Source: Escherichia coli
GTDB lineage: Bacteria; Pseudomonadota; Gammaproteobacteria; Enterobacterales; Enterobacteriaceae
Strand: one strand, 5' to 3'
NCBI RefSeq assembly: GCF_003334305.1
Contig: NZ_QOWS01000003.1
Length of the DNA stretch: 64,000 bases
In this document: one piece after another, positions 20,264 to 51,322 of the stretch
Position numbering within the stretch: position 1 is the stretch's first letter
Layout of the letters: the number at the start of each line of letters is the position of its first letter
The notes under the pieces: generated by a model
Seen by the model: only the letters and a program-made list of their open reading frames with translations
Database searches by the model: none
Told to the model about the DNA's origin: nothing
Position numbers and translations under genes: made by a program

Positions 20264-20279
20264 TTTATAGCGATATCAA

Positions 20280-21284: not shown

Positions 21285-21309
21285 AGATCCCTCCTGTGGC
21301 TAACGCCTT

Positions 21310-21862: not shown

Positions 21863-21872
21863 TTAATTGATT

Positions 21873-21908
21873 AAAATGCCCGATAGCACACACTAGCGGG
21901 CATTTTTT
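21873..21908. terminator. Bidirectional hairpin terminator between rraB and yjgM
   Basis: aaaatgcccg...cgggcattttttt, with stem atgcccg/cgggcat flanked by A and T runs. Confidence 0.65.
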
Positions 21909-22411
21909 TAGAGTTCGCGTAGCATCCGCACTTCACAATCTACATGGCCCGTGCAGCCAAGTGCATAGTCGATATGTTGAAAACCTAAATGTTCATACAA
22001 ACCAATCGCTTCTTTCAAAAAAGCGGTCGTTTCCAGATAGCAGCGTTTGAAGCCCATCTCTCGTGCCTGCTCCATCGCCATTAAGGCCAGTTTTTTCGCC
22101 AGCCCTTTACCGCGAATAGCCGGAAGAAAATACATCTTCTGCAGTTCGCAAATGTCCGACTCACTCCCGGTTAATGGCGCAATCCCACCGCCGCCGACCA
22201 CTTCACCATCGTACTCAACCACCCAATATGCATGACCCGGCTGACTATACACTTGATACAACTCGTCCAGGTTCGGATCGGCGACGGTGTAGCCTTTATC
22301 AGCGGTAAGACCGTATTCGGCGGATACCTGACGAATGACGCGGGCGATGGCGGGATTATCCTGCTGCGTCAGGCGACGCATTACAGGTGATTGCGGCGCA
22401 ATGTTATTCAT
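21908..22411 (-). CDS. yjgM: GNAT-family N-acetyltransferase YjgM
   Basis: 167 aa with the GNAT acetyl-CoA motif ([17 protein letters not shown]). Confidence 0.9.
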
Positions 22412-22603
22412 AGTTTAACCCAATAAAAATAAAGTAATTATACATTTGTTTAATACCACTCTCTTCTTACGTGCGCAAGCGACTTATAAAGTAATAAAGT
22501 TTTTGCCAGCCTATTACTGATAAGAGTATTGTAACGTGGCAGAACATTTTACTGTCTGTATATATAAATTATATCAATGGATTTTTTAATTCAGGGAATT
22601 TTT

Positions 22604-23800: not shown

Positions 23801-23811
23801 GAGATAAAAAA

Positions 23812-23831
23812 GGCCGGAGCATGCTCCGGCC
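23812..23831. terminator. Bidirectional terminator between convergent yjgN and valS
   Basis: ggccggagcatgctccggcc is a perfect hairpin preceded by an A-run and followed by a T-rich stretch. Confidence 0.8.
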
Positions 23832-23855
23832 TTCGTTTTCATTACTGTGTTTTGA

Positions 23856-31366: not shown

Positions 31367-32869
31367 TTACCTTCTTCTTCCCCCCAGCAAACTCCCCAAC
31401 ATCCCGCGTACAATCTGATTCGTCACCTGGCGGGCGGCGCTTTTCGCCATTGTTTGCACCACACCATCTTTCTTCCCGCCGCGTGGTCCGGTAGTGCCAA
31501 ACAAAATATCCTTTAATCCACCAAGAATGCCGTCATCCACCGCCACCTCTTTCCCTTTCGCGGGGGGATTATTTTGCTGCTCGGCGCTTGCCTGTACGCC
31601 TTTTTGCAACATCTCATAGGCGGATTCCCGGTCCACCTCATCCTCGTACTTGCCATACACCGGAGAGTGATTAATCAAGCCATTACGCTCATCTTCCGTC
31701 ACCGGTCCCATCCGCGAACAAGGCGCAATCACCATCGCCCGTTCCACCACTGAAGGACTTCCTTTCACATCAAGAAACGAGATTAACGCCTCGCCGGTCC
31801 CCAGTTCCTGGATTGCCTTTTCGGTATCAAATGCCGGATTGGCCCGCATGGTTTGCGCCGCAGCTTTTACCGCTTTCTGATCTTTGGGCGTAAAAGCCCG
31901 CAAAGCGTGTTGAACGCGATTACCGAGCTGCCCGAGCACATTATCCGGAATATCAGACGGGTTTTGCGAAACGAACCAGACGCCTACGCCTTTTGAGCGA
32001 ATAAGCCGTATCACCTGCTCAATCTTATCCAGCAGTACCTGCGGTGCATCGTTAAACAGCAGATGTGCCTCGTCGAAGAAAAACACCAGTTTTGGTTTCT
32101 CCAGATCGCCCGCTTCCGGCAATTGTTCATACAACTCTGAAAGCATCCACAGCAGGCTGGCGGCGTACAGTTTCGGCATCTGATAAAGCTTCTCGGCGCT
32201 GAGGATATTGATAACGCCTTTACCGTTGGTATCGGTGCGCATCCAGTCTTTGATATCCAGCATCGGCTCGCCAAAGAAGTGTGCTGCGCCTTGCTGTTCC
32301 AGCGACAACAGTCCGCGCTGGATGGCACCAACCGATGCGCTACTGATATTACCGTACTGATTCTGGAAAGATTTGGCGTTATCGCCGATGTACTGGGTAA
32401 TCGCCCGCAGATCTTTAAAGTCGAGCAGCAACAATCCCTGATCGTCAGCAATACGGAAGATGATATTCAGCACGCCAGATTGCACATCGTTGAGATTCAA
32501 CAGCCGCGCCAGCAACAGCGGCCCCAGATCCGAAACCGTCGCCCGCACCGGATGGCCTTTCTCGCCAAAGATATCCCACACCACCACCGGATTAGCATGC
32601 GGTTGCCAGTCATTGACGCCGATATTTTTAAGCCTTGCGAGTAGTTTTTCCGATGCCGTTCCTGCCTGCGCGATGCCGGTCAGATCGCCTTTCACATCGG
32701 CCATAAACACCGGAACACCGATTTCCGATAGAGACTCCGCCAGTTTTTGCAGCGTGACAGTTTTACCCGTCCCCGTTGCGCCAGTAATCAGCCCGTGACG
32801 GTTAGCCATTCCCGGCAGTAAAAACAGTTCTGTGTCCGGCGTGCGGGCAATTAACAGGGGTTCGCTCAT
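31367..32869 (-). CDS. yjgR: DUF853-family P-loop NTPase YjgR
   Basis: Trimmed to [39 protein letters not shown] (500 aa). Walker A GATGTGKT and Walker B VFFFDEAH are present. Confidence 0.9.
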
Positions 32870-32998
32870 GAGATATCCTCCAGTTTCCTGCCTGGAGTAT
32901 AGGCAACGGCTGTGCACTCTTCACCGCTAAATTCAGCAGATTGCGAGACGCCTTCCAAAGAGATTTAAGTGCCGGGCGACAGGCACCCGGCAAAGGGA

Positions 32999-34213: not shown

Positions 34214-34298
34214 GCCGAAGTGGCGAAATCGGTAGACGCAGTTGATTCAAAATCAACCGTAGAAATACGTGCCGGTTCGAGTCCGGCCTTCGGCACCA
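34214..34298 (+). tRNA. leuX: tRNA-Leu (anticodon CAA)
   Basis: 85 nt, gccgaagtggcgaaatcggtagacgcagttgattcaaaatcaaccgtagaaatacgtgccggttcgagtccggccttcggcacca. It has an acceptor stem gccgaag/cttcggc, anticodon loop tt-CAA-aa, a long variable arm, GGTTCGAGTCC in the T-arm and an encoded CCA. Confidence 0.97.
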
Positions 34299-34499
34299 CA
34301 TCGTATGCAAATCGAGTCGCTCAAGGGCGGCTTTTTTTGTGCCTGAAATCCAGTATCCGCAAGGCTTTCCTCGCTTTTTCACTCAACCTAAGTCAACCTG
34401 ATTCAATCTACATCAACTTACTGATGCGGGTACAACTGCGGGTATTTCCCGGTTCGATTATGTTTGTACCCACACAGGGCCCTTGAAAGGATACTCATC

Positions 34500-35764
34500 A
34501 TGGCTCTGAGTGATGTGAAGGTCCGTTCGGCTAAGCCGGAAGCAAAAGCCTATAAACTTACTGACGGTGAAGGCATGGTTTTGTTGGTCACCCTAATGGC
34601 TCCAAATACTGGCGACTTCGTTATCGTTTTGGCGGTAAGGAGAAGATGCTGGCGCTGGGGAAATACCCTGAAGTCTCGCTGGTCGATGCCAGAGGTCGCC
34701 GGGATGAAGCCCGTAAGTTGTTAGCTAACGGCGTCGATCCTAGTGAGAACAAGAAAGCTGTTAAGGTAGAGCATGAGCAAGAGGTGATAACGTTTGAAGT
34801 GGTAGCCAGAGAGTGGCACGCCAGCAATCAGAAGTGGTCTGCATCGCATAGCGCTCGTGTATTGAAAAGCCTCGAAGATAATCTCTTTGCTGCTATCGGT
34901 AAGCGGAACATTGCTGATCTGAAGACTCGGGATCTGCTTGTCCCCATCAAAGCGGTGGAGTCGTCTGGGCGTCTCGAAGTCGCTGCTCGTTTGCAGCAGC
35001 ATACTACCGCGATTATACGCTTTGCTGTACACAGTGGATTAATCGACTACAACCCCGCTCAAGAGATTGCTGGTGCGGTTGCTACGGCGAAAAGACAGCA
35101 TCGTGCTGCTCTGGAACTTAACCGCATTCCTGAATTGCTTCAACGCATCTATCACTATTCTGGCAGGCCGTTAACCCGACTGGCGGTTGAACTCACATTG
35201 TTAGTTTTCATCCGTTCAAGCGAGTTGCGTTTTGCTCGCTGGTCAGAAGTTGATTTTGATACTGCCATGTGGACGATTCCGGGAGAACGTGAGCCACTGG
35301 AGGGAGTTAAGCATTCTCAGCGTGGTTCGAAGATGCGGACTCCACATCTTGTACCCTTATCTCGACAAGCTCTCACCATTCTGGAAAAAATCAAAAGCAT
35401 GAGTGGAAACCGTGAGCTGATCTTCGTTGGTGATCACGATCCGCGTAAGCCAATGAGTGAGAATACGCTTAACAAGGCCTTGCGAGTGATGGGCTATGAC
35501 ACGAAAACGGAAGTGTGTGGACATGGTTTCAGGACGATGGCGTGTAGTTCTTTGATTGAATCGGGATTGTGGTCGAGGGATGCAGTAGAGCGGCAGATGA
35601 GTCATCAGGAACGTAGCTCAGTACGGGCGGCTTATATCCATAAGGCGGAACATCTTGGGGAGCGAATGTTGATGCTGCAGTGGTGGGCTGATTATCTGGA
35701 TGCGAATAGAATGGCGGCTATCACTCCATTTGACTATGCAAAGATTAATAGTTCTTTTCGATAA
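34500..35764 (+). pseudogene. P4/CP4-57-type tyrosine integrase with -1 frameshift near 34589-34591
   Basis: The N-terminus MALSDVKVRSAKPEAKAYKLTDGEGMVLLV (frame of 34500) continues only in another frame as (H)PNGSKYWRLRYRFGGKEKMLALGKYPEVSLVDAR..., which joins the 372-aa ORF. Catalytic HGFRTMA and RAAYIHKAEH are present downstream. Confidence 0.8.
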
Positions 35765-35965: not shown

Positions 35966-37435
35966 TCAAATAACTCCAAGCTTTGCATACAATTCTTTTT
36001 TCTCTTTCATGCTGTTATCCAATGGTGCTACTCGCAATGCCGCTTTCAAATAAGCCGCAGCACCAGAGTAATCACGCATTTGCTCGCAAACTAAAATGAG
36101 TTGGCTTAACACATGGAACTTCATTGGAGTTGTTTGGTTTACTTTCTCCAATAGTACTCTTGCTTCAGAATATTTCGCTTCAAGGCCAAGGATAGATGAT
36201 TCTAAATACATGGTGGCCGCGTTTTCTGCTTCAGCTTGCTTTCGTTGCAACAGCCAGAAATTTGCTTGACTGATATTGCGTAACTGTAGGTTTGCCTTAA
36301 CTATCAACTCGAACAAAGCTGCTGGTTGAGTCAATTTACCCTCAAGTAAGATCGCTTTATTATCTTCTACAACTTTTTCAAAGTCGAATAAGCGATTGGC
36401 GCGATACAAGGCAATAAGTTGCTGATGTAAAGCTTGTAGATCTTTACTGCGGCTATACTCCTGCGACGCTAATTGAGCAGCTTTTTGGTAAGATTGATCG
36501 GACATTGCTTCAAGTACCGCACTTGACCAGTCCTGAGCAGGTTTAGTTTGAAAAACGGGAGCAATAGCACCAACTTTTAATTGCTTAGTGGCAGCAGAAT
36601 CAAATGCATGAATTAAGTCGGAAATAGTGGAAAAGCGATCCTCCGCTCGTTTTTGTAAACAAGTAAGAACCACTTGTTCCAGGTCCGTATGAATAGAGCT
36701 ATTAATCTCTGTCGGAAGCTTGAAAGGTGCGTGGCGCTGAACTTGTGCTGGCGTATCATGGGGCAGCTTTCCTGTCAGCAGCTGGTATAGCAAAACACCT
36801 AAGCTATAGATGTCGCCCAATAGTAGCTCTTCCAGGCTGCCTCTACGGCTATCGACGTTGGAGAACTCTGGGGCCGAATACAGCACAGTCCCGCCATTTT
36901 CACGGGTACGAACGTAAATTTCTTCTGGTAAAGCTGAGCTGCCAAAGTCCGTCAACTTCACCAGGTCCCGCTCTCCAACCAAAATGTTATGTGGCTTAAT
37001 ATCTCCATGAGATATTGGTACTGGTAATTCGGCCAAATAATGCACAGCACAGAGCACTTGACGATATATTCTGAACAACCGTTCATAGGTCTGGCCAAAA
37101 TTACGCTGCCTGTCATCGAGCTTTTGCGCCAGGGTTTGGCTGGGAAAATACTCCATTTCAATATAGAACCATTCATTATCTATACGGCCCATATCAAAAA
37201 TTTGCACAATATTTTCGTGCGGCTCGACGTTTAAAAGCTCTTTACCTTCGGCAAGCTGACGGTCTTCCCGAGTAATATCCTTAGGGATTTTTACTGCGAC
37301 AATTTTTCCATCTTTCAGGCGTTCCGCCCGCCATACCCAGCCATGGCTGCCATCACCAAGGCATTCAAGTAACAGGTATTTGTCACCAAGGCGTTTATTC
37401 GTCCCTGGCAAAAAATGTGCTGATTTTATATTCAC
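35966..37435 (-). CDS. Hanks-type Ser/Thr protein kinase with C-terminal helical (TPR-like) repeat domain; last gene of the nine-gene operon
   Basis: 489 aa with a GTG start overlapping the upstream stop (GTGA). Kinase subdomains are LGDGSHGWVW (Gly loop), VAVKIPK, HGDIKPHNILV, DFGSS, LYSAPE and DIYSLGVLLYQLLTG. The last roughly 200 aa are alpha-helical repeats. Confidence 0.85.
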   Translation of the reverse strand: MNIKSAHFLPGTNKRLGDKYLLLECLGDGSHGWVWRAERLKDGKIVAVKIPKDITREDRQLAEGKELLNVEPHENIVQIFDMGRIDNEWFYIEMEYFPSQTLAQKLDDRQRNFGQTYERLFRIYRQVLCAVHYLAELPVPISHGDIKPHNILVGERDLVKLTDFGSSALPEEIYVRTRENGGTVLYSAPEFSNVDSRRGSLEELLLGDIYSLGVLLYQLLTGKLPHDTPAQVQRHAPFKLPTEINSSIHTDLEQVVLTCLQKRAEDRFSTISDLIHAFDSAATKQLKVGAIAPVFQTKPAQDWSSAVLEAMSDQSYQKAAQLASQEYSRSKDLQALHQQLIALYRANRLFDFEKVVEDNKAILLEGKLTQPAALFELIVKANLQLRNISQANFWLLQRKQAEAENAATMYLESSILGLEAKYSEARVLLEKVNQTTPMKFHVLSQLILVCEQMRDYSGAAAYLKAALRVAPLDNSMKEKKELYAKLGVI

Positions 37436-37974
37436 ATCAACACCTCATAGTGAATTCTGTCCAAAACAATCATGTTCAGGTTTTTGATAAATAAAAAGCG
37501 ACTAAATACCACCTCAACATCAGGAGCGGCGATTACTTGGGTACCCGTGGACGAAGTAAAACCCATACGGCATATGTCTTTCAGTTTTTGAGTATCAGGT
37601 ACACCTACTAAGCCTTGGCTCCAGGCACTGAGGACCAGGGTTTTGGGGCAATGATTCCAGCGCTGTGCTGCTTCCAGTAAGTTTTTTAATTTTTCTTCCA
37701 GCTTTTGCTGCCCCTTCGCTGAACCATCAAAGCGTTCAAATTCGATTAAACACACAGGCGATGCAGAAGATTTATGAAACCAGCCCGAGTCAGAGCGAAT
37801 ATCAGCACCAAATGTCCCTGGAGCCGGGCATTCCACTACCGCCATAAATGACTGTTCATGCCCGAATGTATTCCAAACGCTACAGCCCAGGCTGTGGACC
37901 AATACATCCTGGTCCAATAGCTTACCGCTTGCTAAAAGTGGAAATGTCTCATTTACCCAGGCAACTTCAGGCAT
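37432..37974 (-). CDS. Hypothetical protein (about 180 aa); a possible nuclease-like fold is speculative
   Basis: The ATG at 37974 is preceded by AAGGTG, which overlaps the HerA-like stop (TAAGGTGCCTATG). The track GTG start at 38031 is less likely. The only hint of a PD-(D/E)xK-type site is ADIRSD...CLIEFERFDG...K. No motif was confidently recognised. Confidence 0.55.
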   Translation of the reverse strand: MPEVAWVNETFPLLASGKLLDQDVLVHSLGCSVWNTFGHEQSFMAVVECPAPGTFGADIRSDSGWFHKSSASPVCLIEFERFDGSAKGQQKLEEKLKNLLEAAQRWNHCPKTLVLSAWSQGLVGVPDTQKLKDICRMGFTSSTGTQVIAAPDVEVVFSRFLFIKNLNMIVLDRIHYEVLM

Positions 37975-37981
37975 AGGCACC

Positions 37982-39667
37982 TTAGCCACTGAAAGAGCCC
38001 CAAACACGCAGTACCTCTGGTGATTCACCACCGTGAATTAATGCCTTACTACCAACTTTAACAAGCAGTGGTGCAGGGATTGAACGACCACACACCAAAG
38101 CTTCACCGGTTGATAAACTCGGGAGTTCCTCCAGATCAGCTTTGCTCACCATATCTGATGCTTTAGCTATAAATCGTTGATCGTCAGGGTTCTTTAAGCG
38201 CATCGTAATTAGCGTATTGCACTGAGAGGTCACATCTGAATCTAATTTCGATGGACGCTGGCTCACAATGCCAAATCCAACGCCAAATTTACGACCTTCA
38301 CCAGCGATCTTTTTAATAATGCGGTGACTGACTGCGTTGCCGCCGGCCGGGGCAAAATTATGACCCTCTTCGTAAATGATAAAGCATGGGCGCAGCGGGT
38401 CCGTTTTGCTCGAGGCTGCTTTTAATATTTCACTAGATAACAGTGCACAAATGACTTGCTTAGCGGTATCACTCAAACCTTGTAAGTCAACAACGACTAA
38501 ACGCCCCTGTTGATTGCTCGGGCGACCCACCATTTTGTAAATATCAGTTGGCTCAGCCATTGTTGCGCTGTAAAAACTTTTAGCTTCATTAAGCACACGT
38601 GAAAGCTTCATCGAGGCGACGGCGGCACTACGGCCTGATAACGCCTTCGCCTCAGCTTCAGAAAGGTCGTCCCACTCTTTTAACTCTTCAATACCATCAC
38701 CTAATAAGAAGCGTAGGCGGTTAATATCTCGTGGCTCAGTCTTATCTGCAGAGCGCCAATAACGAATTGCAACATCGAGTACTCGTTGCTGCGGTTCCGT
38801 TAAGCCAGGTAATATTTCAGCAATATCGTCCATTTCAAAATGGTCAAACTGAAGCGCTAATGGCGTATTCTTACTGGCGTATTTATGTTTAAAAGATTCA
38901 TGCTGCGGCGAGTAAACCTGAATACCTGCACCGGCGGCTTGCAGCTTTTCAAAGGTCTGTTTTATCAGTGGCAGTGCTTCTTGATCACGCTTATCGTCAG
39001 TGGCTTCTAAGAAGCTTGAGAATTGCAGATTACCGCCAGCGAGGGCTTTACCGTATTCACCATGTGGGTCAAATACTACTACCGTACCGTTATTAACCGC
39101 AACTAAACGCTCAATAATGCGGCCAACTGTATAAGACTTACCTGAACCCGTCATTGCCAGAACAGCCAAATGCTCAGTGACCAACTTGTTCACGTCAATA
39201 AAAACAGGAACTGTATTCTCACCTTTGTCGTAGCCTACTAAGTTACCTAAGTGCAAACTGGAGTGTTCATTAAATTCGTAAAAATCACTCAAAAACTGAA
39301 AATCGACGGTTTCAACAGCGGTACCCGGGTTAAGCGGGCGACGTGGAATTTTGATTTGACGAGTAACAGGATCGCGGTAACCAACCAGCTCGACCTGAGC
39401 AAACATATTCTCACCAGTTACATTCGCACCGGGCAAAAGCTCAAGCTCGGTTACACCATCGCCAAAGCCGGCGTTATAGAGCATATTAGTACGGCTTATC
39501 TTGGTCACTCGCCCCAGTACGGCGACTTGCCCCTCATCTTTGCGTTCCTGGTGCATAATGCGTACAAACTCACCACGGCGTACTGAAAACGAGTCTTGTA
39601 CAACCATAGTTAACTGACTGGCATCACCAGTGTTACCGACTAATTTACCTAAAACTTTATAAGCCAT
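37982..39667 (-). CDS. HerA/FtsK-like (DUF87-type) P-loop ATPase
   Basis: 561 aa with an N-terminal barrel-like segment, Walker A LAMTGSGKSYTV and Walker B-like PCFIIYEEGHNFAP, the typical HerA arrangement. The start overlaps the upstream gene by 11 nt. Confidence 0.8.
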   Translation of the reverse strand: MAYKVLGKLVGNTGDASQLTMVVQDSFSVRRGEFVRIMHQERKDEGQVAVLGRVTKISRTNMLYNAGFGDGVTELELLPGANVTGENMFAQVELVGYRDPVTRQIKIPRRPLNPGTAVETVDFQFLSDFYEFNEHSSLHLGNLVGYDKGENTVPVFIDVNKLVTEHLAVLAMTGSGKSYTVGRIIERLVAVNNGTVVVFDPHGEYGKALAGGNLQFSSFLEATDDKRDQEALPLIKQTFEKLQAAGAGIQVYSPQHESFKHKYASKNTPLALQFDHFEMDDIAEILPGLTEPQQRVLDVAIRYWRSADKTEPRDINRLRFLLGDGIEELKEWDDLSEAEAKALSGRSAAVASMKLSRVLNEAKSFYSATMAEPTDIYKMVGRPSNQQGRLVVVDLQGLSDTAKQVICALLSSEILKAASSKTDPLRPCFIIYEEGHNFAPAGGNAVSHRIIKKIAGEGRKFGVGFGIVSQRPSKLDSDVTSQCNTLITMRLKNPDDQRFIAKASDMVSKADLEELPSLSTGEALVCGRSIPAPLLVKVGSKALIHGGESPEVLRVWGSFSG

Positions 39668-40814
39668 TATTCAATCCCTCATCGAGGCCTGCCAACCACC
39701 CTGCCTCAATATCATTATTCTTTAGTGCCTGGTGTAAACCCTGGCGATAAAACGTAGCAAATTTAGGTAAAATACCAAGCTGTTGATAACCAAGTAATTG
39801 TGGCAACGGCATTGCATTACCTTTGTTTTGCATATCCAGCACCATCAGGCGAGAGGCAACTAAATCGAGATCAGCACTTTTCCATTCTGGTTCGTCACCC
39901 GCTAATTGCACCATTTTTATCTGTCCACCTCGGGCACTACGGAAGTGAAAACCAATTAGACCTTGCTTAGCTTCAATATTGGGTTCAATGCGCTTTTCTT
40001 GTTCAGACAAACGAAATGCGATGGTGCGCGAATAGTTGCCTAAAATGCCATTGATAAATCGCAAATCTCCCACGCCAACCAAACTTTCATCCAGTCCTTC
40101 CAGATTTTGCATCAACTCTTTAGAAAACCCATCAGATGCTAAAATTTGTTTGCGTCCTTGTTCGGTACGTAAATCTTGTTTGGCGATACTTACAATGGCA
40201 CTAAAGCGCTCAGCCAAAATGCTCGCAAGTACTACACCATTTTGATTCCAGGGAAAAATTCTGGAGCGATGGTTTTGCCAAAAAGTTTCTATCACTTGTC
40301 TGGTTTTTTCGTACTCTTGTTTATGACGGACATTTCTCTCCAGCGGAGCCATATCCCGTGCTAAAAACAACGGCGTATCCAGCAAAATTAAATCGCCAGG
40401 CTCATAACCTAAAAGTTTTTTCTCAACTAACTGATAAGCCTGACGAATTTCAATTAAATCAAGCCGTTTACGCTGAGCTTCAAAATCAATATCATCCAGT
40501 TCTGATACCGAGTCGCTACCCACCGTGCTGACTTTATTGTCATCTATTAACAAATCTGTGCGCACTGCTGCACTGGCATAAATAAAACCACCCAATACCT
40601 TGTCTAAGCACGATTTAGTCGCAATACCGGCTACGCGTAAATTAACAATTGTGGGCTTGGGGACCGCTTTCACTAAGCCAGCATCACGGAATAGCGGCGC
40701 CACTTGCTCAATATCACGGACCTGTTTAAGCAAGCGTCCTGCACTTCCCGGTAAGCGAAGCTGGCTATCGATGGCGAGCGATTGCGCTAAATTCATCGTT
40801 TTGTTCTCATTCAT
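39657..40814 (-). CDS. Hypothetical protein (about 385 aa) in the nuclease-partner slot upstream of HerA
   Basis: The ATG at 40814 lies 2 nt after the upstream TAA. There is no clear catalytic motif. LILLDTPLFL faintly recalls the NurA hhhDGxL motif. The gene position matches NurA, DUF4297 or SIR2 partners in HerA systems. Confidence 0.5.
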   Translation of the reverse strand: MNENKTMNLAQSLAIDSQLRLPGSAGRLLKQVRDIEQVAPLFRDAGLVKAVPKPTIVNLRVAGIATKSCLDKVLGGFIYASAAVRTDLLIDDNKVSTVGSDSVSELDDIDFEAQRKRLDLIEIRQAYQLVEKKLLGYEPGDLILLDTPLFLARDMAPLERNVRHKQEYEKTRQVIETFWQNHRSRIFPWNQNGVVLASILAERFSAIVSIAKQDLRTEQGRKQILASDGFSKELMQNLEGLDESLVGVGDLRFINGILGNYSRTIAFRLSEQEKRIEPNIEAKQGLIGFHFRSARGGQIKMVQLAGDEPEWKSADLDLVASRLMVLDMQNKGNAMPLPQLLGYQQLGILPKFATFYRQGLHQALKNNDIEAGWLAGLDEGLNNGL

Positions 40815-40816
40815 GC

Positions 40817-41665
40817 TTATAGCGTTCCTGTGTGTAGCTGCTCGCCAAGTAATGGGGCATAAGCCCAATATTGCGAGGCTTGTAGGCATGTTTTACCGGT
40901 AGCTGTTATGCCCGCGTCGTCGATAAAATCGTGCTGCCGCAACATCTCACCCCGCTTGACAATATCAAGGCTATTAACATCAAACATCAGCTTAACCGCA
41001 TTATGCTCAGACAACGCTTGTAAGTTCATGCCACCGCCAGCGTAGAGTAATAGCAATACAACTAGATCGTGCTTATCTGGCGTGTAGTCAGTTGATGGCG
41101 CTTTAGGTTCGATTATTCGTTCAGCAATGCCTGCATGGTCCACAAACCAATTCAACCAGCTCACCAGGAGCTCACTATGATCGAGTAAAGTCAGCGACCA
41201 CAAAGGTAACGTGGTAAAGGCTAATAGCCCACTGTTGCTGTGTTTTCGTATGTAGCGGGTATGCACTACATCACCGGCCTGGTGCTGGTAGCGATCTGCG
41301 CTGCCAGTAAAGCCAGCAATAGCCTGGTCTGTTTCACTGGCTAGCAAAGCGGTTAGCCCCGGTTCCTGCCCCCTCAAGCTCGCTGGTACTAACTGCCAAT
41401 CCAGTGGATAGGGCAATTGCGCTAATAAGGTAAATTGTTCTGCTTTCAGGTTTATTACCAAAGCGGCACAACCTGCCTGCATAGCCCAGTGATACAGGTG
41501 CTGCATAGTATTAGCGTCAGTCAACTCTTCTGCTTGCACTATTAACAAACCGCTGGCTGGCGGCGAGCTAATCCAATCCTTCATTAAGGGGGTAGCCCCC
41601 GCAACAGTTTGCAAAAAACGGCCTTTACGATTACTGGCCAGTGCCGCAGATAAATAACGACTCAT
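40817..41665 (-). CDS. Hypothetical protein (about 282 aa)
   Basis: The ATG at 41665 is preceded by a GAGGTGA Shine-Dalgarno sequence that overlaps the TAG of the 1428-aa gene. No recognisable motif. Confidence 0.55.
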   Translation of the reverse strand: MSRYLSAALASNRKGRFLQTVAGATPLMKDWISSPPASGLLIVQAEELTDANTMQHLYHWAMQAGCAALVINLKAEQFTLLAQLPYPLDWQLVPASLRGQEPGLTALLASETDQAIAGFTGSADRYQHQAGDVVHTRYIRKHSNSGLLAFTTLPLWSLTLLDHSELLVSWLNWFVDHAGIAERIIEPKAPSTDYTPDKHDLVVLLLLYAGGGMNLQALSEHNAVKLMFDVNSLDIVKRGEMLRQHDFIDDAGITATGKTCLQASQYWAYAPLLGEQLHTGTL

Positions 41666-41675
41666 CGCGTCACCT

Positions 41676-44600
41676 CTACAAACCAGTGGCAAAGGTAAGG
41701 CGCATTTTTACAATGCCTTTGTCTACAAGTCCTTTCTGTTGCTCAGGTGTTAACACGGGTTCCTGATTTTGGCTCAAAGCCTTATAAATCGGTTGCCAAT
41801 CCGCCAGTGTTAAGCCTGTATCATTTAATATTTGCTCACCTTGACTCTGCCATTTGGCCTGGGTGCTTTCACACACCTGTTGAAGTTCTCTGACACCCAA
41901 ATTGCTCACATCCTCCAGAGTCAACGCTGCTGGTTCCGCTTGCTTTTGAGAAGCCAATAGCGGTTTTAATAACGGCAGCCAGCTGTTTACCTGTGCGATG
42001 GAGTTGCGTCTTACTTGGTTTAGACGCTCTTCAATTTTAAGTAGCTGGCCTTGAATCGGTGTAAGTTGACCGCGTGCCGGTTTTAAAAGCTCTTCTGGTA
42101 AATCCCGTAACGATGAAAACTGCCCATTGCGCAAACTGTTTTGCATACTTTGACGCTTGCTCTCTGCATCACTGGGGAGATCGGCAATAGCATCTTCAAT
42201 GAGCTGTAATTTCATTACCAGTTTTGGTAGCTCTGCAATGTCATCGGCGAACTGATACTCAGCCGTGGCGCTACTAAGCCATTCTTGCAGTTGTTGTGCA
42301 CGTAGTTTTTGCTCTGTGAGGTTATTAACCAGCTTACTAAATCGTTCTTTGCAGTTGCGGTAGCTGGACAAAATATGCCCCTGAATCTCCGCTATCGGCA
42401 ACTGTTGATCATTGTGCAGGTTTAAACCCACTTCTTGCGCTAAGGCTGAAAGCTTGTCATGCGCTCTACCTAAATCGAGTTTACGCAGGTAATGCAGTAA
42501 GGTATCGCTATCTGCTTGCTGCTCTTTTCGGCCAGTGGCACTGCTGGTATCGTCTTTTAACGCTCCATCTAAAATATGACCTATGGTGCGCAGCGTGTTG
42601 GTGTACAGACGTTTCGGAAAATTCGTCAGCGGGGCACACTCTGTTTCAACATCTATGATTAAATCAACGAGTCGGTTGTTGATACGCTCAGCGCTGCACT
42701 CAACAAACTCGGCAAATAAACAGGCCTGTTCAATCCGTTGATAAAGCGAGGTCGTTTTGTCTTCTAAGCTGAGAATATGGGCATCTTTTAGCATAGGCCT
42801 GGAACTATTAAGCGGTTTAACCTTTGCTACCAGCTCCAGCACTTCAGCGCGTTTGTGGATAAGCCCTGCCAATACTTTCGTGTCGTTGGCCTCGACCATA
42901 TCAGCCAATTGTTCTTCTTGCTGTTTGAGCACGTTAAATAGCGATTGTGCTTTTTCCAGCTGCTCTTTAGCTTCCACGGTGACGAAACCCAGCTTATTTT
43001 TACCCAGTGGCGCGAACATTTCATTAATGCGTGCATAACCATACACGCGGCTCATGACTTCCACATTGGCTGCATAGCTGCCCATATCGTTACCACGGAA
43101 CCAGTTTTGCGCTTCTCTAATGGCATTTTCTAAGCGGGAGCGCGGGTAGTGCTCCCAAATTGCCTGTTTTTCTGTTGGATTGGTTAAAGTGAGTAAGTTC
43201 AGCTCTCCACACCACCACATCCAGTCATTAAACACGCCTTTGGCGGTAACACTCGTTTCAGCCACATAGGCGAAATAAAACTGTTGCTTAAAGCCTTCGA
43301 ATTGCCACTTGTGCTTTTTATTAGGGTGAGCAATACGGGCTAAAAATAATGGGATCTGCGCCTGGCTTCGCTGCACATTATTAAGTTCAGTAAATAGCCC
43401 GGCATGTTCATCGGCAGTGTAACCTTTGGCAATATAGCTGCCCGGCACCTTAAGTTTATCCAACAAGCTGCTCAGCTCATTCACTGGCACGCCGTGTTGC
43501 TGCTGTAAATCGAGAATGCCATTTAACTCAGGGTGAGCAATGGCCAGCTGATACCAGCCTTTAAACAACAGGTCTCGGTCATTCGGTGATAATTTACCAT
43601 CTACCTTTAACGGCCAGGCAATTAAACCGCGCTGCTGCAAACGCTGGCGCCACTTGTGAATGGCATCCGTGGCAAAGGTTGTCAGGGCATGCAGCTTGTT
43701 TTTGAATTTCGCGGTAAAGCTGTCGGCAGTTAAATTCACGCCGTGCAACTGACATGCTGCCAAACTTAAGCCAATACGCTCTAACTGGTCTGCTTCGCTT
43801 GGGTTGACATAATGCAGCAGTATCGCATCACGCAACTCATTTCTTTCATCCAGTCGGCTGTATTGCTCCATGAGATGTGCAGAAGCAGTTAACGCTAATA
43901 CTGGCGTGCGACCATTTTGGTGGCTGTGGTTTGCCGCAAAGGTGTGAAGATTGTTCAGCTCAATTAGGTTGCTGACCCAGGCAAACAAGGCTTTACCTTC
44001 TGGGTGAAGCTTAAATCCATCCAGGGTAAGTAAACCACCCTGGCGGCCACGGGGCTCGGTTAAAATGGCCAAAGGTGCATCGTCGCTGCCCGCTTTATTA
44101 CTCAGCAAGTTTTCATCATAGGTCCAGTTGTTATCAAGTAATCTCACAAAGCCCGTTACACGGGCTAATGCCTTGATGAGCGGCTTCTGGCTACTTTGTT
44201 TGCTAAGTTCACTCATTGCCTGTTCATGAGCGTCGCCCATGGCGGGATCTTTAAAAATCAGTGAGTTTTGCTGGGCACTGCGATAGCGCAAATCCAGGCG
44301 CAGTAACATCGCCACACTGGGGCCAATATGCGTTGCTTCGCTGGCGTCCAGTTCGGTAGTTTCACCCACTAGCTTGTGCCATAAGGCATCGGCAGCGAAT
44401 TCAATCGCTGGGTGGTCATACAGCAAGCTGAGTAAGTATTTAAACTCACCTTTTGACAGAGGTAGTAATACCGCGCCTTTATCGCCGCTTGCGGCTTGTT
44501 CTTTAATTGAAAAAGTACGCAGGTTATCCAGCAAAGTATCTAAGTTCAGCGCTTGATCTACTGCAGGGTAGTACCATTCATCTTTATCGCGGCGGAATTT

Positions 44601-45962
44601 GGCTTGCTCCAGGGCTTGTCGGCACTGTAGGCGGTCAATGCTCAGTTTGCGGTAATGAGCGGCTATGGGTTCCAGATCTTCGTTTTTCAGCGCCAGCAAT
44701 TCTGTGGCATAGCCCATTTCAGCTAAGCGCACGGGTAATTGGCCGTAGAGCAAACTACGACATTCGGTCAATAGTGCCTGGTCGCGAGTTTGAATGCCTT
44801 CTATCGCGCCTTTATCCAGCACATGCCTGGCTACGCGGCCAGAGCCTGCCAGCACAGCTTCAAATAAATCGCCCACATCCTTGATACTGCGGCCTGCTTG
44901 TTGGTATTGGCTCAGCACTGCATCCACATTAGCCATGACCACGTTAAACCAACCGAAGTTGGCACCACTCATGGCGTATGCAGCTTCCACTAAACCAGCA
45001 GGGTAATTAAAACCCAGCTTGCCGTCTTTTAAGAGGCTTGCCACATAGTCTGATACATCGGCAAAGGCATTATGCTCAAGTTCCACTAACTCAAAGCGGC
45101 GTGCGACCGATTGAATTTCGCGCAATTGCTGGCCAAGCAGTGGTGAACACAGCGCTACATAGCGCAACCATGGAAGTTTACGGCGAGGGTCTTCCTCTTT
45201 AATTGCTTTACCAATCAGGCGAATGGCCTGGCCATCGAGGCGTTTATTTTGTTCATCTTCCAGGCCAAAGGTGGCGGCTTCTGCAACGGTTTCCAGCTCA
45301 TCCAGCACCACCAACATATACTGCACGCCAAAGCTCTTTAATACTTTATAGGCGGCTTGCACCAAACTGACTACCAGCGTTTGGTCAGTATAGAGGTCTT
45401 CTTCGCTGTGGTTGGCGTTCAGCTGTAAGGCATCTGCTAACAGTTCAGATTTAAAGCCAAATGGCATTAAGCGTTCATAGGCTTGTTTGGCAATTTCACT
45501 TTGAATCGATCCATCAAAGGTTTGGGTGGCCAGTGGTAATAGCGCCTGATATAAACCAAAAGCAAACCAGTTATCCGAGTTTTGATAATCTGATGCCACT
45601 TGCGAGTAGCGAATGTAGAGCGCCAGGTATTTGTCTTGCGTGTCGCGATTAAACAGCTGCTTATCGTGCAGTTGGCCTTGTTCGTCGCGGACAAACCAGC
45701 CCCTTGAACAGTCGTTAATTTGTGCAACCAATTCATGGCCTAAACGTGATTTACCCCGACCCCATTCGGCTTCGACGGCAAACACATGGGCAAAGCGATC
45801 ATCGTCGTGATCCACCGTATGCAAAAAGGTTTGAAAGCGTTTAAAAAAGCGGCTCTGGCCCACTAACGGGTCGCGAGGTGGATAATCTGATACGCCCGTC
45901 GCCGCCCAGCGATGTTGTTTTGCCAGGCTATCAACCATCTGTTCGTTTAATTCAAAACTCAT
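41676..45962 (-). CDS. Giant (1428 aa) P-loop NTPase with long helical C-terminal region
   Basis: Walker A-like EAEWGRGKSRLGHE sits near residue 65 and Walker B-like YMLVVLDELE near residue 215. The remainder is helix-rich with no motif I can name. Its ATG overlaps the upstream TGA (ATGA). Confidence 0.7.
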   Translation of the reverse strand: MSFELNEQMVDSLAKQHRWAATGVSDYPPRDPLVGQSRFFKRFQTFLHTVDHDDDRFAHVFAVEAEWGRGKSRLGHELVAQINDCSRGWFVRDEQGQLHDKQLFNRDTQDKYLALYIRYSQVASDYQNSDNWFAFGLYQALLPLATQTFDGSIQSEIAKQAYERLMPFGFKSELLADALQLNANHSEEDLYTDQTLVVSLVQAAYKVLKSFGVQYMLVVLDELETVAEAATFGLEDEQNKRLDGQAIRLIGKAIKEEDPRRKLPWLRYVALCSPLLGQQLREIQSVARRFELVELEHNAFADVSDYVASLLKDGKLGFNYPAGLVEAAYAMSGANFGWFNVVMANVDAVLSQYQQAGRSIKDVGDLFEAVLAGSGRVARHVLDKGAIEGIQTRDQALLTECRSLLYGQLPVRLAEMGYATELLALKNEDLEPIAAHYRKLSIDRLQCRQALEQAKFRRDKDEWYYPAVDQALNLDTLLDNLRTFSIKEQAASGDKGAVLLPLSKGEFKYLLSLLYDHPAIEFAADALWHKLVGETTELDASEATHIGPSVAMLLRLDLRYRSAQQNSLIFKDPAMGDAHEQAMSELSKQSSQKPLIKALARVTGFVRLLDNNWTYDENLLSNKAGSDDAPLAILTEPRGRQGGLLTLDGFKLHPEGKALFAWVSNLIELNNLHTFAANHSHQNGRTPVLALTASAHLMEQYSRLDERNELRDAILLHYVNPSEADQLERIGLSLAACQLHGVNLTADSFTAKFKNKLHALTTFATDAIHKWRQRLQQRGLIAWPLKVDGKLSPNDRDLLFKGWYQLAIAHPELNGILDLQQQHGVPVNELSSLLDKLKVPGSYIAKGYTADEHAGLFTELNNVQRSQAQIPLFLARIAHPNKKHKWQFEGFKQQFYFAYVAETSVTAKGVFNDWMWWCGELNLLTLTNPTEKQAIWEHYPRSRLENAIREAQNWFRGNDMGSYAANVEVMSRVYGYARINEMFAPLGKNKLGFVTVEAKEQLEKAQSLFNVLKQQEEQLADMVEANDTKVLAGLIHKRAEVLELVAKVKPLNSSRPMLKDAHILSLEDKTTSLYQRIEQACLFAEFVECSAERINNRLVDLIIDVETECAPLTNFPKRLYTNTLRTIGHILDGALKDDTSSATGRKEQQADSDTLLHYLRKLDLGRAHDKLSALAQEVGLNLHNDQQLPIAEIQGHILSSYRNCKERFSKLVNNLTEQKLRAQQLQEWLSSATAEYQFADDIAELPKLVMKLQLIEDAIADLPSDAESKRQSMQNSLRNGQFSSLRDLPEELLKPARGQLTPIQGQLLKIEERLNQVRRNSIAQVNSWLPLLKPLLASQKQAEPAALTLEDVSNLGVRELQQVCESTQAKWQSQGEQILNDTGLTLADWQPIYKALSQNQEPVLTPEQQKGLVDKGIVKMRLTFATGL

Positions 45963-47260
45963 AACGACGATCCTTGAAGGTTTATTCTATTGGCGGCGCG
46001 TTTTTTATTGGCATAGCAGTTTTGCGCCAGTTGCTTAATGGTCCGTTGTAACGTTTGGCTTTTGTAGCCAAATAGTGGTGCTAACGGCAGGCTATAACAG
46101 GCATCGCTGAAGCTTGTATGAATTCGATATTGGCCGGCCTCTCCACGACCCGCCTCGGTAAATTGCCAGATTTTTTTTGCCAACAATTCGGCAATGAATG
46201 AGCTCAGGACGCGGTTTAGGCGGTTGATGCTTTCCGTGTTCGCATCGAGTGCCGGGTAGAGGGGTATATTGAGCTCACCGAGCAGAAGCACAAGAAACTC
46301 GGCCAAACTACCCAGACTCACCTCATCACCTTCAATGCCCTGTACCGCCACATTTATTTGACCGGGGGCAAAGGCATTTTGCCCGGCAGGTAAGGTGAGC
46401 AACAAACCGCCACGTTGCTCGGCAGCCCAGGCATCTTGCACAAAGATAATTAGACTGAGTAAAAATAACCAGGGCTGTTGGGCGAATAGCTCGGTAAGCG
46501 GCATGTTGTCATGACCCGAGCGGGACACCAATAACCAATCGGCATTGGGTTTAAGGTTATGTTCATCAAGCAAGGTATTAGGGAGTGCTAACAACCGCCC
46601 ACTACACCAGTTATTTGTCAGTTGTTTTGCGGTGACATCCACCGCTTGTATAGGTGCCGGTGGTTCATTTTGTTCGCTCACGGTAAACAAGGTATAGCTG
46701 GTGCGCAAAATACGACATAGCGCGGGAATGGCAGCATTGTCGTTTAGGCTATGACCGAGCAAATCGCGTTCGGTTTGTGCCAGAGGGCCGGCAATGATTT
46801 GCGGCGTGGTGGCAGTGCTTTCCAGCTGGGCTAAGACCCATTCACTGGCATTGCCCAGTTGCTGAATGAGTTTAACCAATACCATTGTGTCACTCATCGT
46901 GCCTGCTTCCTGGCAGCGAGCGGCGGCTAAATTGATCCAATGTTGGCGAACATCTGGGTTTAAGCCCAACAACGCTAATTGCCATTCACCTGACTGGCTT
47001 AAATCGTTAAAGGCATCAAGCAATGGTGCAGTGAGGCTAAAGGCGCTAACGATATCCGTTTCAGCGTCGTTCTTTTTCGGCTGTATTATTGGTTGTAGCA
47101 GTGACCTAAGGGCAGGCACAGCCGCCAATAACAATGCTGCTTTGTTGGCGTTCAAACCACCTTGTTGCCAAAGCTGCAGGCAGAGGTTAAGTGCCGCTTC
47201 GCTATTTACGGGGTCGTTATATTGCCTGGTTGTACTGCTGTCCGTGCCCCTTGTCTCCAT
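45959..47260 (-). CDS. Hypothetical protein (433 aa)
   Basis: The ORF starts 2 nt after the S-subunit TAA and ends in an ATGA overlap with the giant NTPase gene. No recognisable motif. Confidence 0.6.
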   Translation of the reverse strand: METRGTDSSTTRQYNDPVNSEAALNLCLQLWQQGGLNANKAALLLAAVPALRSLLQPIIQPKKNDAETDIVSAFSLTAPLLDAFNDLSQSGEWQLALLGLNPDVRQHWINLAAARCQEAGTMSDTMVLVKLIQQLGNASEWVLAQLESTATTPQIIAGPLAQTERDLLGHSLNDNAAIPALCRILRTSYTLFTVSEQNEPPAPIQAVDVTAKQLTNNWCSGRLLALPNTLLDEHNLKPNADWLLVSRSGHDNMPLTELFAQQPWLFLLSLIIFVQDAWAAEQRGGLLLTLPAGQNAFAPGQINVAVQGIEGDEVSLGSLAEFLVLLLGELNIPLYPALDANTESINRLNRVLSSFIAELLAKKIWQFTEAGRGEAGQYRIHTSFSDACYSLPLAPLFGYKSQTLQRTIKQLAQNCYANKKRAANRINLQGSSL

Positions 47261-47262
47261 CT

Positions 47263-48738
47263 TTACTCTTCAGCCTCCGCTTGCGCCGCCTCTTCCAGCA
47301 AACTGTATAACTCATCCACATCGCTAAATAGCGGTGTGGCACCTTCAATGGCATAACCCTCAGCGCTCAGTTTGCTTAAAATCGCTTGATCAAAGCTGCT
47401 GTCGCCATCTTCCAGGGCTTGTTGGGCCTGGATTAGTTGTTGCTCAGTCAGTTGGCCTTCGATTAATGACTCAACTAGAGTTTTGGCAGATGCTGTTAAC
47501 TTTTTTGCATATGCTGCCGTAGTAACGGCTAGTCTCAGCTTACTTCCTATTTCTCTATTCTTCGCTATGTCAATCGGAATCAGAATATTTAACAGGTTTT
47601 CTGAAGTCACTTTTGGTACAACGCTGCCAGTAGTCACACCTTTCCAACACGGAAAGTGTTTATCCAGGAACCTACAAATAGACTCAATATCATATTCATC
47701 TTTTACCTTTAAAACCCAAACATGGTTGTTTGCCCAAAACTTTCCATCAGCTACATTTGCACAGCCAATAGAGCCATCTTGCGCAATAATCAGATATTTA
47801 CCGTTGAAATTGAATTCGGTATGAGTATCTATTGGACCTGATGCGCCATAGTAAAAATATGGTCCGGGTACTCTGTCTTCCGATTTAATAGGGTCGCCAC
47901 ATTTGCATTTACTAATGAAATTAGATAGTTTTGATGAATTCCTAAAGGTCATTTGACTATCGGCCGCACGTGCAAACTCAGGAGCTAAAGACACTGCTGA
48001 TAATACCTGTTGTTTCATTCTTCTAGGTTTCAATGTTAATGAATCAACAAGGTTGAAGTGAAATAAATCTTTAATTTTTCTATCAGCCATTCCTTCAAGT
48101 CGTTTCGCCCAAGCGCGTAACTGCTCGGCTTGGCGAACTTTATCCCCGATGTATTTTTGGGCTAGAGGTAAAACTTTAGGAACCGCTAGCGAGCGGACAC
48201 TTGGGAAGTCAATTGCAGGGCGAGTTGCGCCATATGCTTCCTTCCAGATCGCTACTTGTCCGGTTTTGCTATTCAAATATGCCACCAAGAAATAGGCGTC
48301 AACTTTTTTGGGATCGGGCTTGAATCTGACTGAGTGCTGACTAATGTTGGCCGGTAGATGTTTAGCTGACACAACAGCCGATTTACCAAATTTTGCACCA
48401 GTAATCGTAAGTAAAACGTCGCCATCCACTAATCGGCTGCGCTTTAATTTTTCATCATCTTCATCGTTAATAAAAACAGCTTCTTCAGCTTGCAAGAACA
48501 TTTCTTCAACTTCAGAAGTGCGATAAAACTTAACACGGCCTTTTTCTAAATAATTTGCTCCTAAAGGTGTTGCGCCACTAGCCACCCCGCGCTTTGAATC
48601 AATTACCGCTTCTAGGGGCAAAGCACCTAGGTTGTCTTTTATCTTATTAATTTGTCTTTCAAATCGCGGTTGATAGTGCCAAGGATCAATCCGCCTTTCA
48701 GACAATTGTTCGGGTGTTCTTTTAAAAATAGTTGCCAT
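47263..48738 (-). CDS. Type I-like restriction-modification specificity (HsdS-like) subunit with two target-recognition domains
   Basis: About 491 aa. TRD1 carries RIDPWHY..., GDVLLTITGAKFGKSAVV and NISQHSVRF. A conserved helical spacer (QKYIGDKVRQAEQLRAWAKRLE) follows, then a second TRD (YYGASGPI...IIAQDGSIG...NNHVWVLK) and a C-terminal helix plus acidic tail. The ATG overlaps the methyltransferase TGA (TGATG). Confidence 0.8.
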   Translation of the reverse strand: MATIFKRTPEQLSERRIDPWHYQPRFERQINKIKDNLGALPLEAVIDSKRGVASGATPLGANYLEKGRVKFYRTSEVEEMFLQAEEAVFINDEDDEKLKRSRLVDGDVLLTITGAKFGKSAVVSAKHLPANISQHSVRFKPDPKKVDAYFLVAYLNSKTGQVAIWKEAYGATRPAIDFPSVRSLAVPKVLPLAQKYIGDKVRQAEQLRAWAKRLEGMADRKIKDLFHFNLVDSLTLKPRRMKQQVLSAVSLAPEFARAADSQMTFRNSSKLSNFISKCKCGDPIKSEDRVPGPYFYYGASGPIDTHTEFNFNGKYLIIAQDGSIGCANVADGKFWANNHVWVLKVKDEYDIESICRFLDKHFPCWKGVTTGSVVPKVTSENLLNILIPIDIAKNREIGSKLRLAVTTAAYAKKLTASAKTLVESLIEGQLTEQQLIQAQQALEDGDSSFDQAILSKLSAEGYAIEGATPLFSDVDELYSLLEEAAQAEAEE

Positions 48739-50935: not shown

Positions 50936-51322
50936 CTAATTTATCAGTACCAGCAAGGGGCCTTTAATCTCTATCTGCGCGTGCTTCTGTGCCAGTTTGC
51001 GTATCTGCTGTTCACTGGTCGTAATACCAGCAGGGAGCTTTTTCAGTACTTGTGCAAGGGGCATGCGCCCACCAGCTTGATGCAACAATGATACCAAATG
51101 TGCCGCGATATCAGGTATAACCTGGTACGTTGCCGTTGTGGGCCCTTTTAGATGATTACTTTGAGGCAATGAGGCAAGCCATAGCGAAACTTGAGACTGG
51201 CTAAAGCCAAGTGTTTGCCAGAGGGTTTGGTTCTCATTAAATACAACGGCGGCGCTTCTGGGAGTTGCTGTTTGCTGAGTTATTAGTTGTTCCAGGCTTT
51301 GTCGCTGGTATTCATGGGTCAT
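50936..51322 (-). CDS. Hypothetical 128-aa protein translationally coupled to McrC
   Basis: Its ATG overlaps the McrC TGA (ATGA). No motif was recognised. It ends 50 nt upstream of the methyltransferase ATG. Confidence 0.55.
   Translation of the reverse strand: MTHEYQRQSLEQLITQQTATPRSAAVVFNENQTLWQTLGFSQSQVSLWLASLPQSNHLKGPTTATYQVIPDIAAHLVSLLHQAGGRMPLAQVLKKLPAGITTSEQQIRKLAQKHAQIEIKGPLLVLIN

Follow-up and report, generated by a model that had tools for sequence, protein, structure and literature searches.

Organization of the nine-gene operon

The DNA analysed here, referred to throughout as the window, is a 64 000-nucleotide stretch of an Escherichia coli genome (contig NZ_QOWS01000003.1 of assembly GCF_003334305.1). 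An initial annotation singled out four genes at positions 35966–40814, encoding a HerA-family ATPase, a 385-residue protein upstream of it, a 180-residue protein downstream of it and a terminal Ser/Thr kinase, and described them as a sub-module. The genes, and the HerA and LILLDTPLFL motifs quoted from them, are located as the annotation had placed them: the open reading frames, the RefSeq coding sequences and Pfam agree, and the same four coding sequences with equal lengths are found in the RefSeq annotation of an identical locus in E. coli strain A7. All four are conserved across at least 45 species and are therefore genuine. They make up, however, only the 3' half of an operon of nine genes on the minus strand (35966–50885), and the conserved unit does not stop at 40814 but runs upstream to 50885 to include HsdM- and HsdS-like proteins and a 1428-residue P-loop nucleoside triphosphatase (NTPase).

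Read from its 5' end, the operon begins with genes for an HsdM-like N6-adenine DNA methyltransferase (715 residues, 48738–50885) and an HsdS-like Type I specificity (S) subunit (492 residues, 47263–48741). These are followed by genes for a fast-evolving 433-residue protein (45959–47260), the 1428-residue NTPase (41676–45962), in which a KAP-type N-terminal domain precedes a long helical/coiled-coil region, and a fast-evolving 282-residue protein (40817–41665). The 385-residue protein, which appears to be NurA-like, is encoded at 39657–40814 if translation starts at the ATG; its reading frame is open to 40889, which would give 410 residues. The gene for the HerA-family hexameric ATPase/translocase (561 residues) lies at 37982–39667, that for a predicted nuclease of 180–185 residues with a restriction-endonuclease fold at 37432–37989, and that for the Hanks-type Ser/Thr kinase (489 residues, GTG start, TPR-like C-terminal region) at 35966–37435. 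For the predicted nuclease, called the 180-residue protein below, the ATG form occupies 37432–37974 and the reading frame is open to 38031 (199 residues), but a GTG start at 37989 is favoured by homologues of 185 residues.

The nine genes either overlap or are separated by gaps of at most 10 nucleotides, and among the last four the spacing consists of overlaps of 4–11 nucleotides or gaps of no more than 7. The NurA-like gene overlaps the start of the HerA gene by 11 nucleotides, and the start codon of the kinase gene overlaps the stop codon of the gene before it. A scan for promoters and terminators returned sites no more numerous than in shuffled sequence.

Conservation of the cassette

One genome per species was scanned with a profile of the 385-residue protein, which gave 49 loci, and all nine window proteins were mapped onto these loci by tblastn; only loci long enough to judge were counted. 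The loci come from Enterobacterales, Vibrio, Pseudoalteromonas, Psychrobacter, Acinetobacter, Pseudomonas, Methylococcales, Betaproteobacteria, Desulfobacterota, Fibrobacter, Blackallbacteria and Sumerlaeota, and the gene order is identical in every locus that could be judged. HerA, the 180-residue protein and the kinase are present together in 45 of 45 loci, the upstream trio of genes is present in 43 of 44, and the 433-residue gene keeps its place in 43 of 44. The 282-residue gene always lies between the NTPase and NurA-like genes. The flanks of the cassette vary, with McrBC in E. coli, Mrr in Pseudomonas and CBASS in the locus that we call L058. The kinase, present in all 45 loci despite these differing flanks, is therefore an integral member of the unit; the initial annotation had included it, while allowing that it might be an independently acquired neighbour, and the latter is not what we find. 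Among 5426 complete E. coli genomes, 268 (approximately 5%) carry the block; strain NCTC9088 is an example of a carrier.

We note one irregular copy. L028, from a Desulfobacteraceae metagenome-assembled genome, is the sole locus that lacks the 433-residue gene and most of the NTPase match despite having enough sequence upstream of position 8402, and it may be rearranged or decayed.

The members of the cassette evolve at different rates. Median identities at the distant loci are 85% for HerA, 70% for the methyltransferase, 65% for the NurA-like protein, 58% for the kinase, 52% for the NTPase, 49% for the 180-residue protein, 35% for the 433-residue protein, 30% for the 282-residue protein and 28% for the S subunit, the last three being the fastest-evolving members. 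The variability of the S subunit, the greatest in the cassette, is as expected of target-recognition domains that are swapped. HerA is the best-conserved gene, with 79–100% protein identity across phyla (loci L002–L050), a range that it maintains while its operon neighbours drop to 26–60%. This difference could be attributed either to an unusually strong constraint on one subunit or to recent horizontal spread.

Two loci in which the NurA-like protein is highly diverged extend the comparison further. In L056, a metagenome contig with a member of the NurA-like family at 21% identity, genes are found for a 1332-residue NTPase homologue (phmmer, 2e-17), a 297-residue protein, this NurA-like member, HerA and a protein homologous to the 180-residue one. 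This locus has no kinase and carries two N6_N4 methyltransferases instead of HsdM and HsdS; it is probably haloarchaeal, as judged from its Cdc6_lid and DUF8012 neighbours. The second locus, L058 (25% identity), shows the full bacterial layout including the kinase with its TPR region. Both have a gene of similar size in the slot of the 282-residue gene. The gene content of L056 and L058 therefore defines a core consisting of the NTPase, a protein of approximately 290 residues, the NurA-like protein, HerA and the restriction-endonuclease-fold protein, whereas the Type I methyltransferase/S pair and the kinase are clade-specific additions that are invariable within their clade.

Directly after the operon in L058 (15316–19026) lies a CBASS-like set (patatin, SMODS cyclase and E1/E2-like proteins), and an Mrr-type nuclease is also encoded there; the setting is thereby confirmed as a defence island. 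On the L056 and L057 contigs (approximately 2000–16400), the kinase-less core is accompanied by unassigned genes for proteins of 571 and 458 residues upstream.

These comparisons bear on the question of whether the locus is one system or a stack of independent ones, namely an orphan Type I methyltransferase/S pair, a HerA system of two or three genes akin to HerA–DUF4297 or SIR2–HerA, and a defence kinase that acts by itself. Two-gene HerA systems and single-gene kinases do exist as autonomous defences, and the HerA core of L056 pairs with other methyltransferases and does without a kinase. We nevertheless regard a stack as improbable. The genes and their order do not vary in 45 of 45 and 43 of 44 loci from several phyla even though the flanks (Mrr, CBASS or McrBC) differ, and start and stop codons overlap throughout. 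Furthermore, no HsdR motor-nuclease subunit was found in the operon using Pfam, PADLOC and NCBIfam, and neither HerA partner, the 180-residue protein included, has a DUF4297 or SIR2 match in Pfam or PADLOC.

HerA and its two partner proteins

HerA contains a Walker A motif (G174-S-G-K177-S) and a Walker B motif (I430-IYEEGH) with the acidic pair Glu433/Glu434, and matches the Pfam families DUF87 (1.2e-44) and HAS-barrel (8.8e-07). The closest solved chains are PDB entry 9x1l, described as a 'DNA helicase' (4.4e-48), and Sulfolobus HerA (PDB entry 4d2i; 6e-33), both ahead of the HerAs of defence systems. Among the PADLOC models, those for HerA match at up to 1.2e-56; the mad8 model matches residues 148–550 at 6.6e-26, below the generic HerA models.

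Neither partner protein has a Pfam family match, and by Pfam and PADLOC neither is a standard NurA or DUF4297 protein, in line with the initial annotation, which had left both unassigned. Structure prediction, which it had recommended for both, was informative for one of them. The model of the 180-residue protein has a pLDDT (predicted local distance difference test) score of 90 and forms a restriction-endonuclease-like domain with the α-β-β-β-α-β core of the PD-(D/E)xK superfamily; the nearest folds are BamHI/OkrAI/NucC-like. Residues Glu48, Asp62, Glu78-x-Glu80, Arg81, Lys91 and Lys95 are invariant in the family, even in homologues at 21–25% identity, and map to strands 1–3 and the helix that follows. 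The D..ExE arrangement is reminiscent of BamHI, in which we take ExE to be the third motif. Both partners had been described as devoid of a clean nuclease motif, which for this protein is incorrect given the confident fold and the invariant E..D..ExE..K set. On the strength of the model we assign the protein to the PD-(D/E)xK superfamily, an assignment at the level of the fold with no close solved relative, and it looks like the predicted nuclease of the operon.

The 385-residue protein was more difficult to place. Its AlphaFold2 model, calculated from a 40-sequence alignment, has a pLDDT of only 45.5, and the Foldseek matches of that model were noise; the relation to NurA, a family with an RNase H-like fold, is drawn from sequence comparisons. 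The family is small: an exhaustive profile search gave only 123 cluster representatives, some at 20–28% identity, and several of the orthologues are named 'NurA domain-containing protein' in UniRef. When the widened profile was compared with 177 635 PDB sequences at E ≤ 10, a single match was returned, which was NurA from S. solfataricus (PDB entry 2ygk) with an E value of 0.44. It is very unlikely that a lone match would land on the expected partner family by chance. The Pfam NurA family (PF09376) is matched below threshold by three of 31 family members and is the family most frequently matched in this way. The highest-scoring member, at 19.5 bits (E 7.4e-4), falls short of the cut-off of 21, and a second has an E value of 0.024 across profile positions 73–247 of 254. 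No family member reaches the gathering score, and the protein of the window has no Pfam NurA match. An hhalign comparison with a single Sulfolobales NurA, represented by two near-identical genes from a metagenome scan, gave an E value of 0.0057 with a probability of 6%, over the C-terminal 77 columns only, and a homologue search seeded with fragments of S. solfataricus NurA found nothing. The several lines that link this protein to NurA are each weak but are mutually concordant.

Asp146, within the motif L142-ILLDTPLFL, is the only acidic residue conserved in the family (at least 90% of members) and corresponds to the strand aspartate of the 'hhhhDGSL' segment in Sulfolobales NurA. The position aligned with Asp58 of S. 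solfataricus NurA (motif I) is alanine, serine or threonine in nearly all members; this stretch of the alignment is weak, scoring only 0.5 bits. Judged from these alignments, the 385-residue protein appears to be a diverged NurA-like protein that probably lacks the first catalytic aspartate, and it may no longer be a nuclease.

The arrangement of these genes resembles that of the HerA–NurA end-resection machinery known from archaea and some bacteria (PDB entries 4d2i and 2ygk), in that a HAS-barrel HerA is encoded immediately after, and overlapping with, a NurA-like gene. Taken together with the close similarity of HerA to the HerAs of HerA–NurA pairs, this could suggest a housekeeping resection or repair pair that has no part in defence. 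Such a role is very hard to reconcile with the remaining data and we give it almost no weight. The NurA similarity is below threshold and the motif I aspartate appears to be replaced by alanine, serine or threonine; no Mre11 or Rad50 is present; and the two genes share a restriction–modification-like operon with a methyltransferase, an S subunit, an additional nuclease-fold protein and a kinase. The operon is, moreover, carried by an integrase-bearing island at a tRNA-Leu gene in only 5% of E. coli genomes.

The modification subunits, the NTPase and the unassigned proteins

The methyltransferase matches Pfam N6_Mtase (5.8e-22), the PADLOC model MTase_I (PDLC03023) over its full length and the mad2 model (2.2e-20); its NCBIfam MADS2 score is 112 bits against a cut-off of 720. 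The S subunit matches Pfam Methylase_S (3.2e-19), PADLOC Specificity_I (7.7e-164) and mad5 (6.3e-16); its NCBIfam MADS5 score is likewise below the cut-off. In the 1428-residue protein we identified a Walker A motif (G68-RGKS) and a Walker B motif (V218-VLDELE), and Pfam KAP_NTPase is matched below threshold by 20 of 22 orthologues, the best at 1.5e-4. Matches of its profile to influenza HA2 coiled coils in the PDB, which involve the C-terminal part, were set aside as compositional and spurious.

The 433-residue protein has no match in Pfam, PADLOC or NCBIfam. For the 282-residue protein no family match was found, and a comparison of its profile with the PDB was also empty. Searches of PADLOC at E ≤ 10 with the five unassigned proteins of the operon gave one negligible match, and single-sequence searches of the PDB returned nothing.

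The kinase and the relation to MADS

The kinase matches Pfam Pkinase (2.1e-34) and has the VAIK lysine, HRD-type loop, DFG and APE elements of a Hanks kinase: Lys49, H143-G-D145, Lys147/Asn150, D163-FG and A188-PE are invariant in 17 orthologues. A TPR-type match covers residues 400–473. The best PADLOC model is mad6 (1.2e-45), and the NCBIfam MADS6 score is 116.9 bits against a cut-off of 460, so that by these sequence comparisons the protein is a homologue of Mad6 and not an equivalog. It also matches models of the PD-T4-6 stand-alone defence kinases (1e-39 to 1e-25) and PglW (approximately 1e-19).

The methylation-associated defence system, MADS, comprises eight genes, mad1–8, which encode a helix-turn-helix protein, an N6 methyltransferase, an AbiEii/OLD-type ATPase, a DUF4276 protein, an S subunit, a kinase, a DptG-like protein and a HerA-like protein, respectively (bioRxiv 10.1101/2023.03.30.534895; published as Maestri et al., 2024, Cell Host Microbe 32:1412). 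Each of mad2–4 and mad6–8 is needed for defence, the kinase and HerA-like genes included, and the canonical system acts like a restriction system that can be escaped through methylation (bioRxiv 10.1101/2023.03.30.534895). The combination of HerA with a Hanks kinase, which the initial annotation did not recognise from earlier descriptions, is therefore present in MADS as Mad8 and Mad6.

We considered whether the kinase could be the true effector, phosphorylating a broad set of host or phage proteins and so shutting down the cell in an abortive infection like that of Stk2 or the single-gene PD-T4-6 kinases, with HerA, the NurA-like protein and the nuclease sensing or processing the invading DNA. 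The many PD-T4-6 model matches and the PglW match are in agreement with this, as are the invariant catalytic residues, the TPR-like interaction domain and the position of the kinase as the last gene, translationally coupled to that of the nuclease. On the other hand, L056 keeps the ATPase, NurA-like protein, HerA and nuclease without a kinase, which indicates that the core has its own output; the conserved catalytic set of the restriction-endonuclease type favours DNA cleavage as an effector step; and canonical MADS behaves in the manner of a methylation-escapable restriction system. We therefore think it unlikely that the kinase is the effector, and prefer restriction of DNA by the HerA-containing half of the operon.

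The operon is similar to canonical MADS in uniting an N6 methyltransferase, an HsdS-like subunit, a Hanks kinase and a HerA-like ATPase, and PADLOC MADS models match four of its nine proteins: mad2 (methyltransferase), mad5 (S subunit), mad6 (kinase) and mad8 (HerA). It differs in that Mad3, Mad4 and Mad7 are replaced by the KAP-type NTPase and the 433-residue, 282-residue, NurA-like and restriction-endonuclease-fold proteins. No match to the DptG-like Mad7 was found among the five unassigned proteins in PADLOC at E ≤ 10, and neither Mad3 (AbiEii/OLD-Toprim ATPase) nor Mad4 (DUF4276) has a PADLOC, Pfam or NCBIfam match in the operon. The MacSyFinder rule of the MADS authors makes Mad6, Mad7 and Mad8 mandatory. 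By this rule the operon is not a canonical MADS system, the mandatory mad7 having no match, like mad3 and mad4, and the scores of its proteins against NCBIfam MADS2, MADS5 and MADS6 are far under the equivalog cut-offs. Since no Mad7 homologue was found, the detection rule of the authors fails and MADS-specific models are likely to miss the operon.

The same authors noted a 'MADS-like' operon in P. aeruginosa, described only bioinformatically in their Supplementary Notes, with the order methyltransferase (Madl3), S subunit (Madl4), hypothetical protein, ATPase (Madl6), two hypothetical proteins, helicase/translocase (Madl9), hypothetical protein and kinase (Madl11) (bioRxiv 10.1101/2023.03.30.534895). 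The content and order of the nine window genes agree with this description, the methyltransferase, S subunit, NTPase and kinase being the equivalents of Madl3, Madl4, Madl6 and Madl11. Our Pseudomonas loci support the correspondence: one (L051) carries all nine genes, whose products equal or approach their window counterparts in length, two more (L023 and L048) match the window proteins at 27–87% identity, and the NCBI source of three orthologues (P0118, P0205 and P0210) is P. aeruginosa. The P. aeruginosa operon has two additional 5' genes, encoding Madl1, a WYL-HTH regulator, and Madl2, whereas the E. coli locus has a 128-residue open reading frame upstream of the methyltransferase gene; the compared loci end at the methyltransferase. 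The operon in the window consequently represents, in E. coli, a variant already noticed but uncharacterised, and we found no other mention of the MADS-like variant in a phage context in the literature searched. Its authors made no prediction for four of the proteins, and two of these are assigned here. The restriction-endonuclease fold of the 180-residue protein, the sub-threshold NurA relationship of the 385-residue protein and the distant kinase-less variant are new to this work.

Comparison with other defence systems

Like HerA–DUF4297 and SIR2–HerA, the operon has a HerA in a defence island next to the gene of its effector; DUF4297, too, is a nuclease of the PD-(D/E)xK type. Here, however, the nuclease fold is that of a 180-residue single-domain protein and seven further genes are obligatorily linked.

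The resemblance to Type I restriction–modification lies in the HsdM-family methyltransferase and in an HsdS with two target-recognition domains that is hypervariable between strains. The difference lies in HsdR, which combines a superfamily 2 motor with a nuclease and has no counterpart here; we infer that the HerA-family motor and the separate restriction-endonuclease-fold protein substitute for it.

BREX type 2 and Pgl likewise link methylation with a Ser/Thr kinase and a large P-loop ATPase, but HerA, NurA-like and restriction-endonuclease-fold proteins are not BREX components, and PglZ, PglX and BrxC/PglY have no PADLOC match in the operon. Three further identities were rejected: MANTIS/Gao_RL, the components of which differ; the BREX-related capture systems with HerA/FtsK, because PglZ, DUF6079 and the STAND NTPase are absent here; and DndFGH, because there are no DptF/G/H-type matches.

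Proposed function of the operon

In our view, the genes flagged initially are probably the restriction/effector half of a nine-gene, methylation-based 'MADS-like' operon directed against phages and plasmids, which an integrase-bearing island has brought to the leuX hotspot. Gene content and order, co-conservation, family and fold assignments and catalytic residues are as observed above; from these we infer every functional step of the following scheme. The HsdM-like methyltransferase and HsdS would mark a bipartite sequence in the host DNA with N6-methyladenine. Unmarked incoming DNA would be recognized with the help of the 1428-residue NTPase and the 433- and 282-residue proteins. A HerA hexamer, bound to the NurA-like protein in the way that archaeal HerA binds NurA, would then load onto the DNA and translocate it at the expense of ATP. 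Cutting would fall to the small restriction-endonuclease-fold protein and not to the degenerate NurA-like one, such that HerA and a mini-nuclease stand in place of HsdR. Finally, the TPR-bearing Hanks kinase, catalytically intact as judged by its motifs, would gate or reinforce the response by phosphorylation.

A broader and distinctly more tentative proposal concerns the five-gene core, which could be an ancient and new ATP-driven restriction motor of bacteria and probably also of archaea. In such a motor a degenerate NurA scaffold might have ceded cleavage to a BamHI-like restriction-endonuclease-fold subunit, and in bacteria the assembly might have taken over from HsdR behind a Type I methyltransferase/S pair, with a Hanks kinase as its new controller. 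We offer this as a speculation that is more apt to be wrong than right.

The operon joins Type I-like epigenetic self-marking, the DNA-end machinery of HerA and NurA and eukaryote-like kinase signalling, three themes that tend to be investigated separately. Five of its nine proteins are still 'hypothetical' in RefSeq, even though the operon occurs in dozens of distant species as well as in approximately 5% of the complete E. coli genomes. If the division of labour outlined here is true, with HerA as the motor, the NurA-like protein as the adaptor and the restriction-endonuclease-fold protein as the blade, a restriction–modification system can exchange its motor-nuclease subunit for a different machine. 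The catalytic residues listed above are concrete targets for point mutants in the restriction step of MADS-type systems.

Genomic setting in E. coli

The window is E. coli chromosome, with lptFG, yjgR and ahr on one side and nanC/nanM and the fim genes on the other. The block adjoins the tRNA-Leu(CAA) gene leuX (34214–34298), a site known as E. coli defence hotspot 37 (review, PMC12707154). A P4-type integrase gene follows leuX, the two together spanning 34214–35764 on the plus strand; the arm-binding domain of the integrase is truncated and RefSeq annotates the gene as frameshifted, and the island may no longer be mobile.

Directly upstream of the operon (50936–54730, minus strand) is a pair of genes for an McrB-family protein of 691 residues and an McrC-family protein of 447 residues. 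The 128-residue open reading frame lies between the McrC and methyltransferase genes, with its start overlapping the end of the McrC gene, and has no Pfam match. In other species none of these three is conserved together with the nine-gene cassette. Further upstream is a gene for a 309-residue HNH_2 protein (54900–55829, minus strand), named 'phosphorothioated DNA-binding restriction endonuclease' by RefSeq. No dnd or ssp modification genes were seen among the open reading frames listed for 34–64 kb of the window, and the protein looks like an orphan Type IV enzyme.

We note that the window carries two HerA-superfamily ATPases in unrelated contexts. In addition to the HerA of the operon there is yjgR (31367–32917, minus strand), a core-genome gene approximately 3 kb from the island whose product is annotated as 'helicase HerA-like C-terminal domain-containing protein'. 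Lastly, the G+C content at 18001–24000 is 0.37–0.47 compared with approximately 0.52 in the surrounding sequence, which suggests that this is another horizontally acquired segment.

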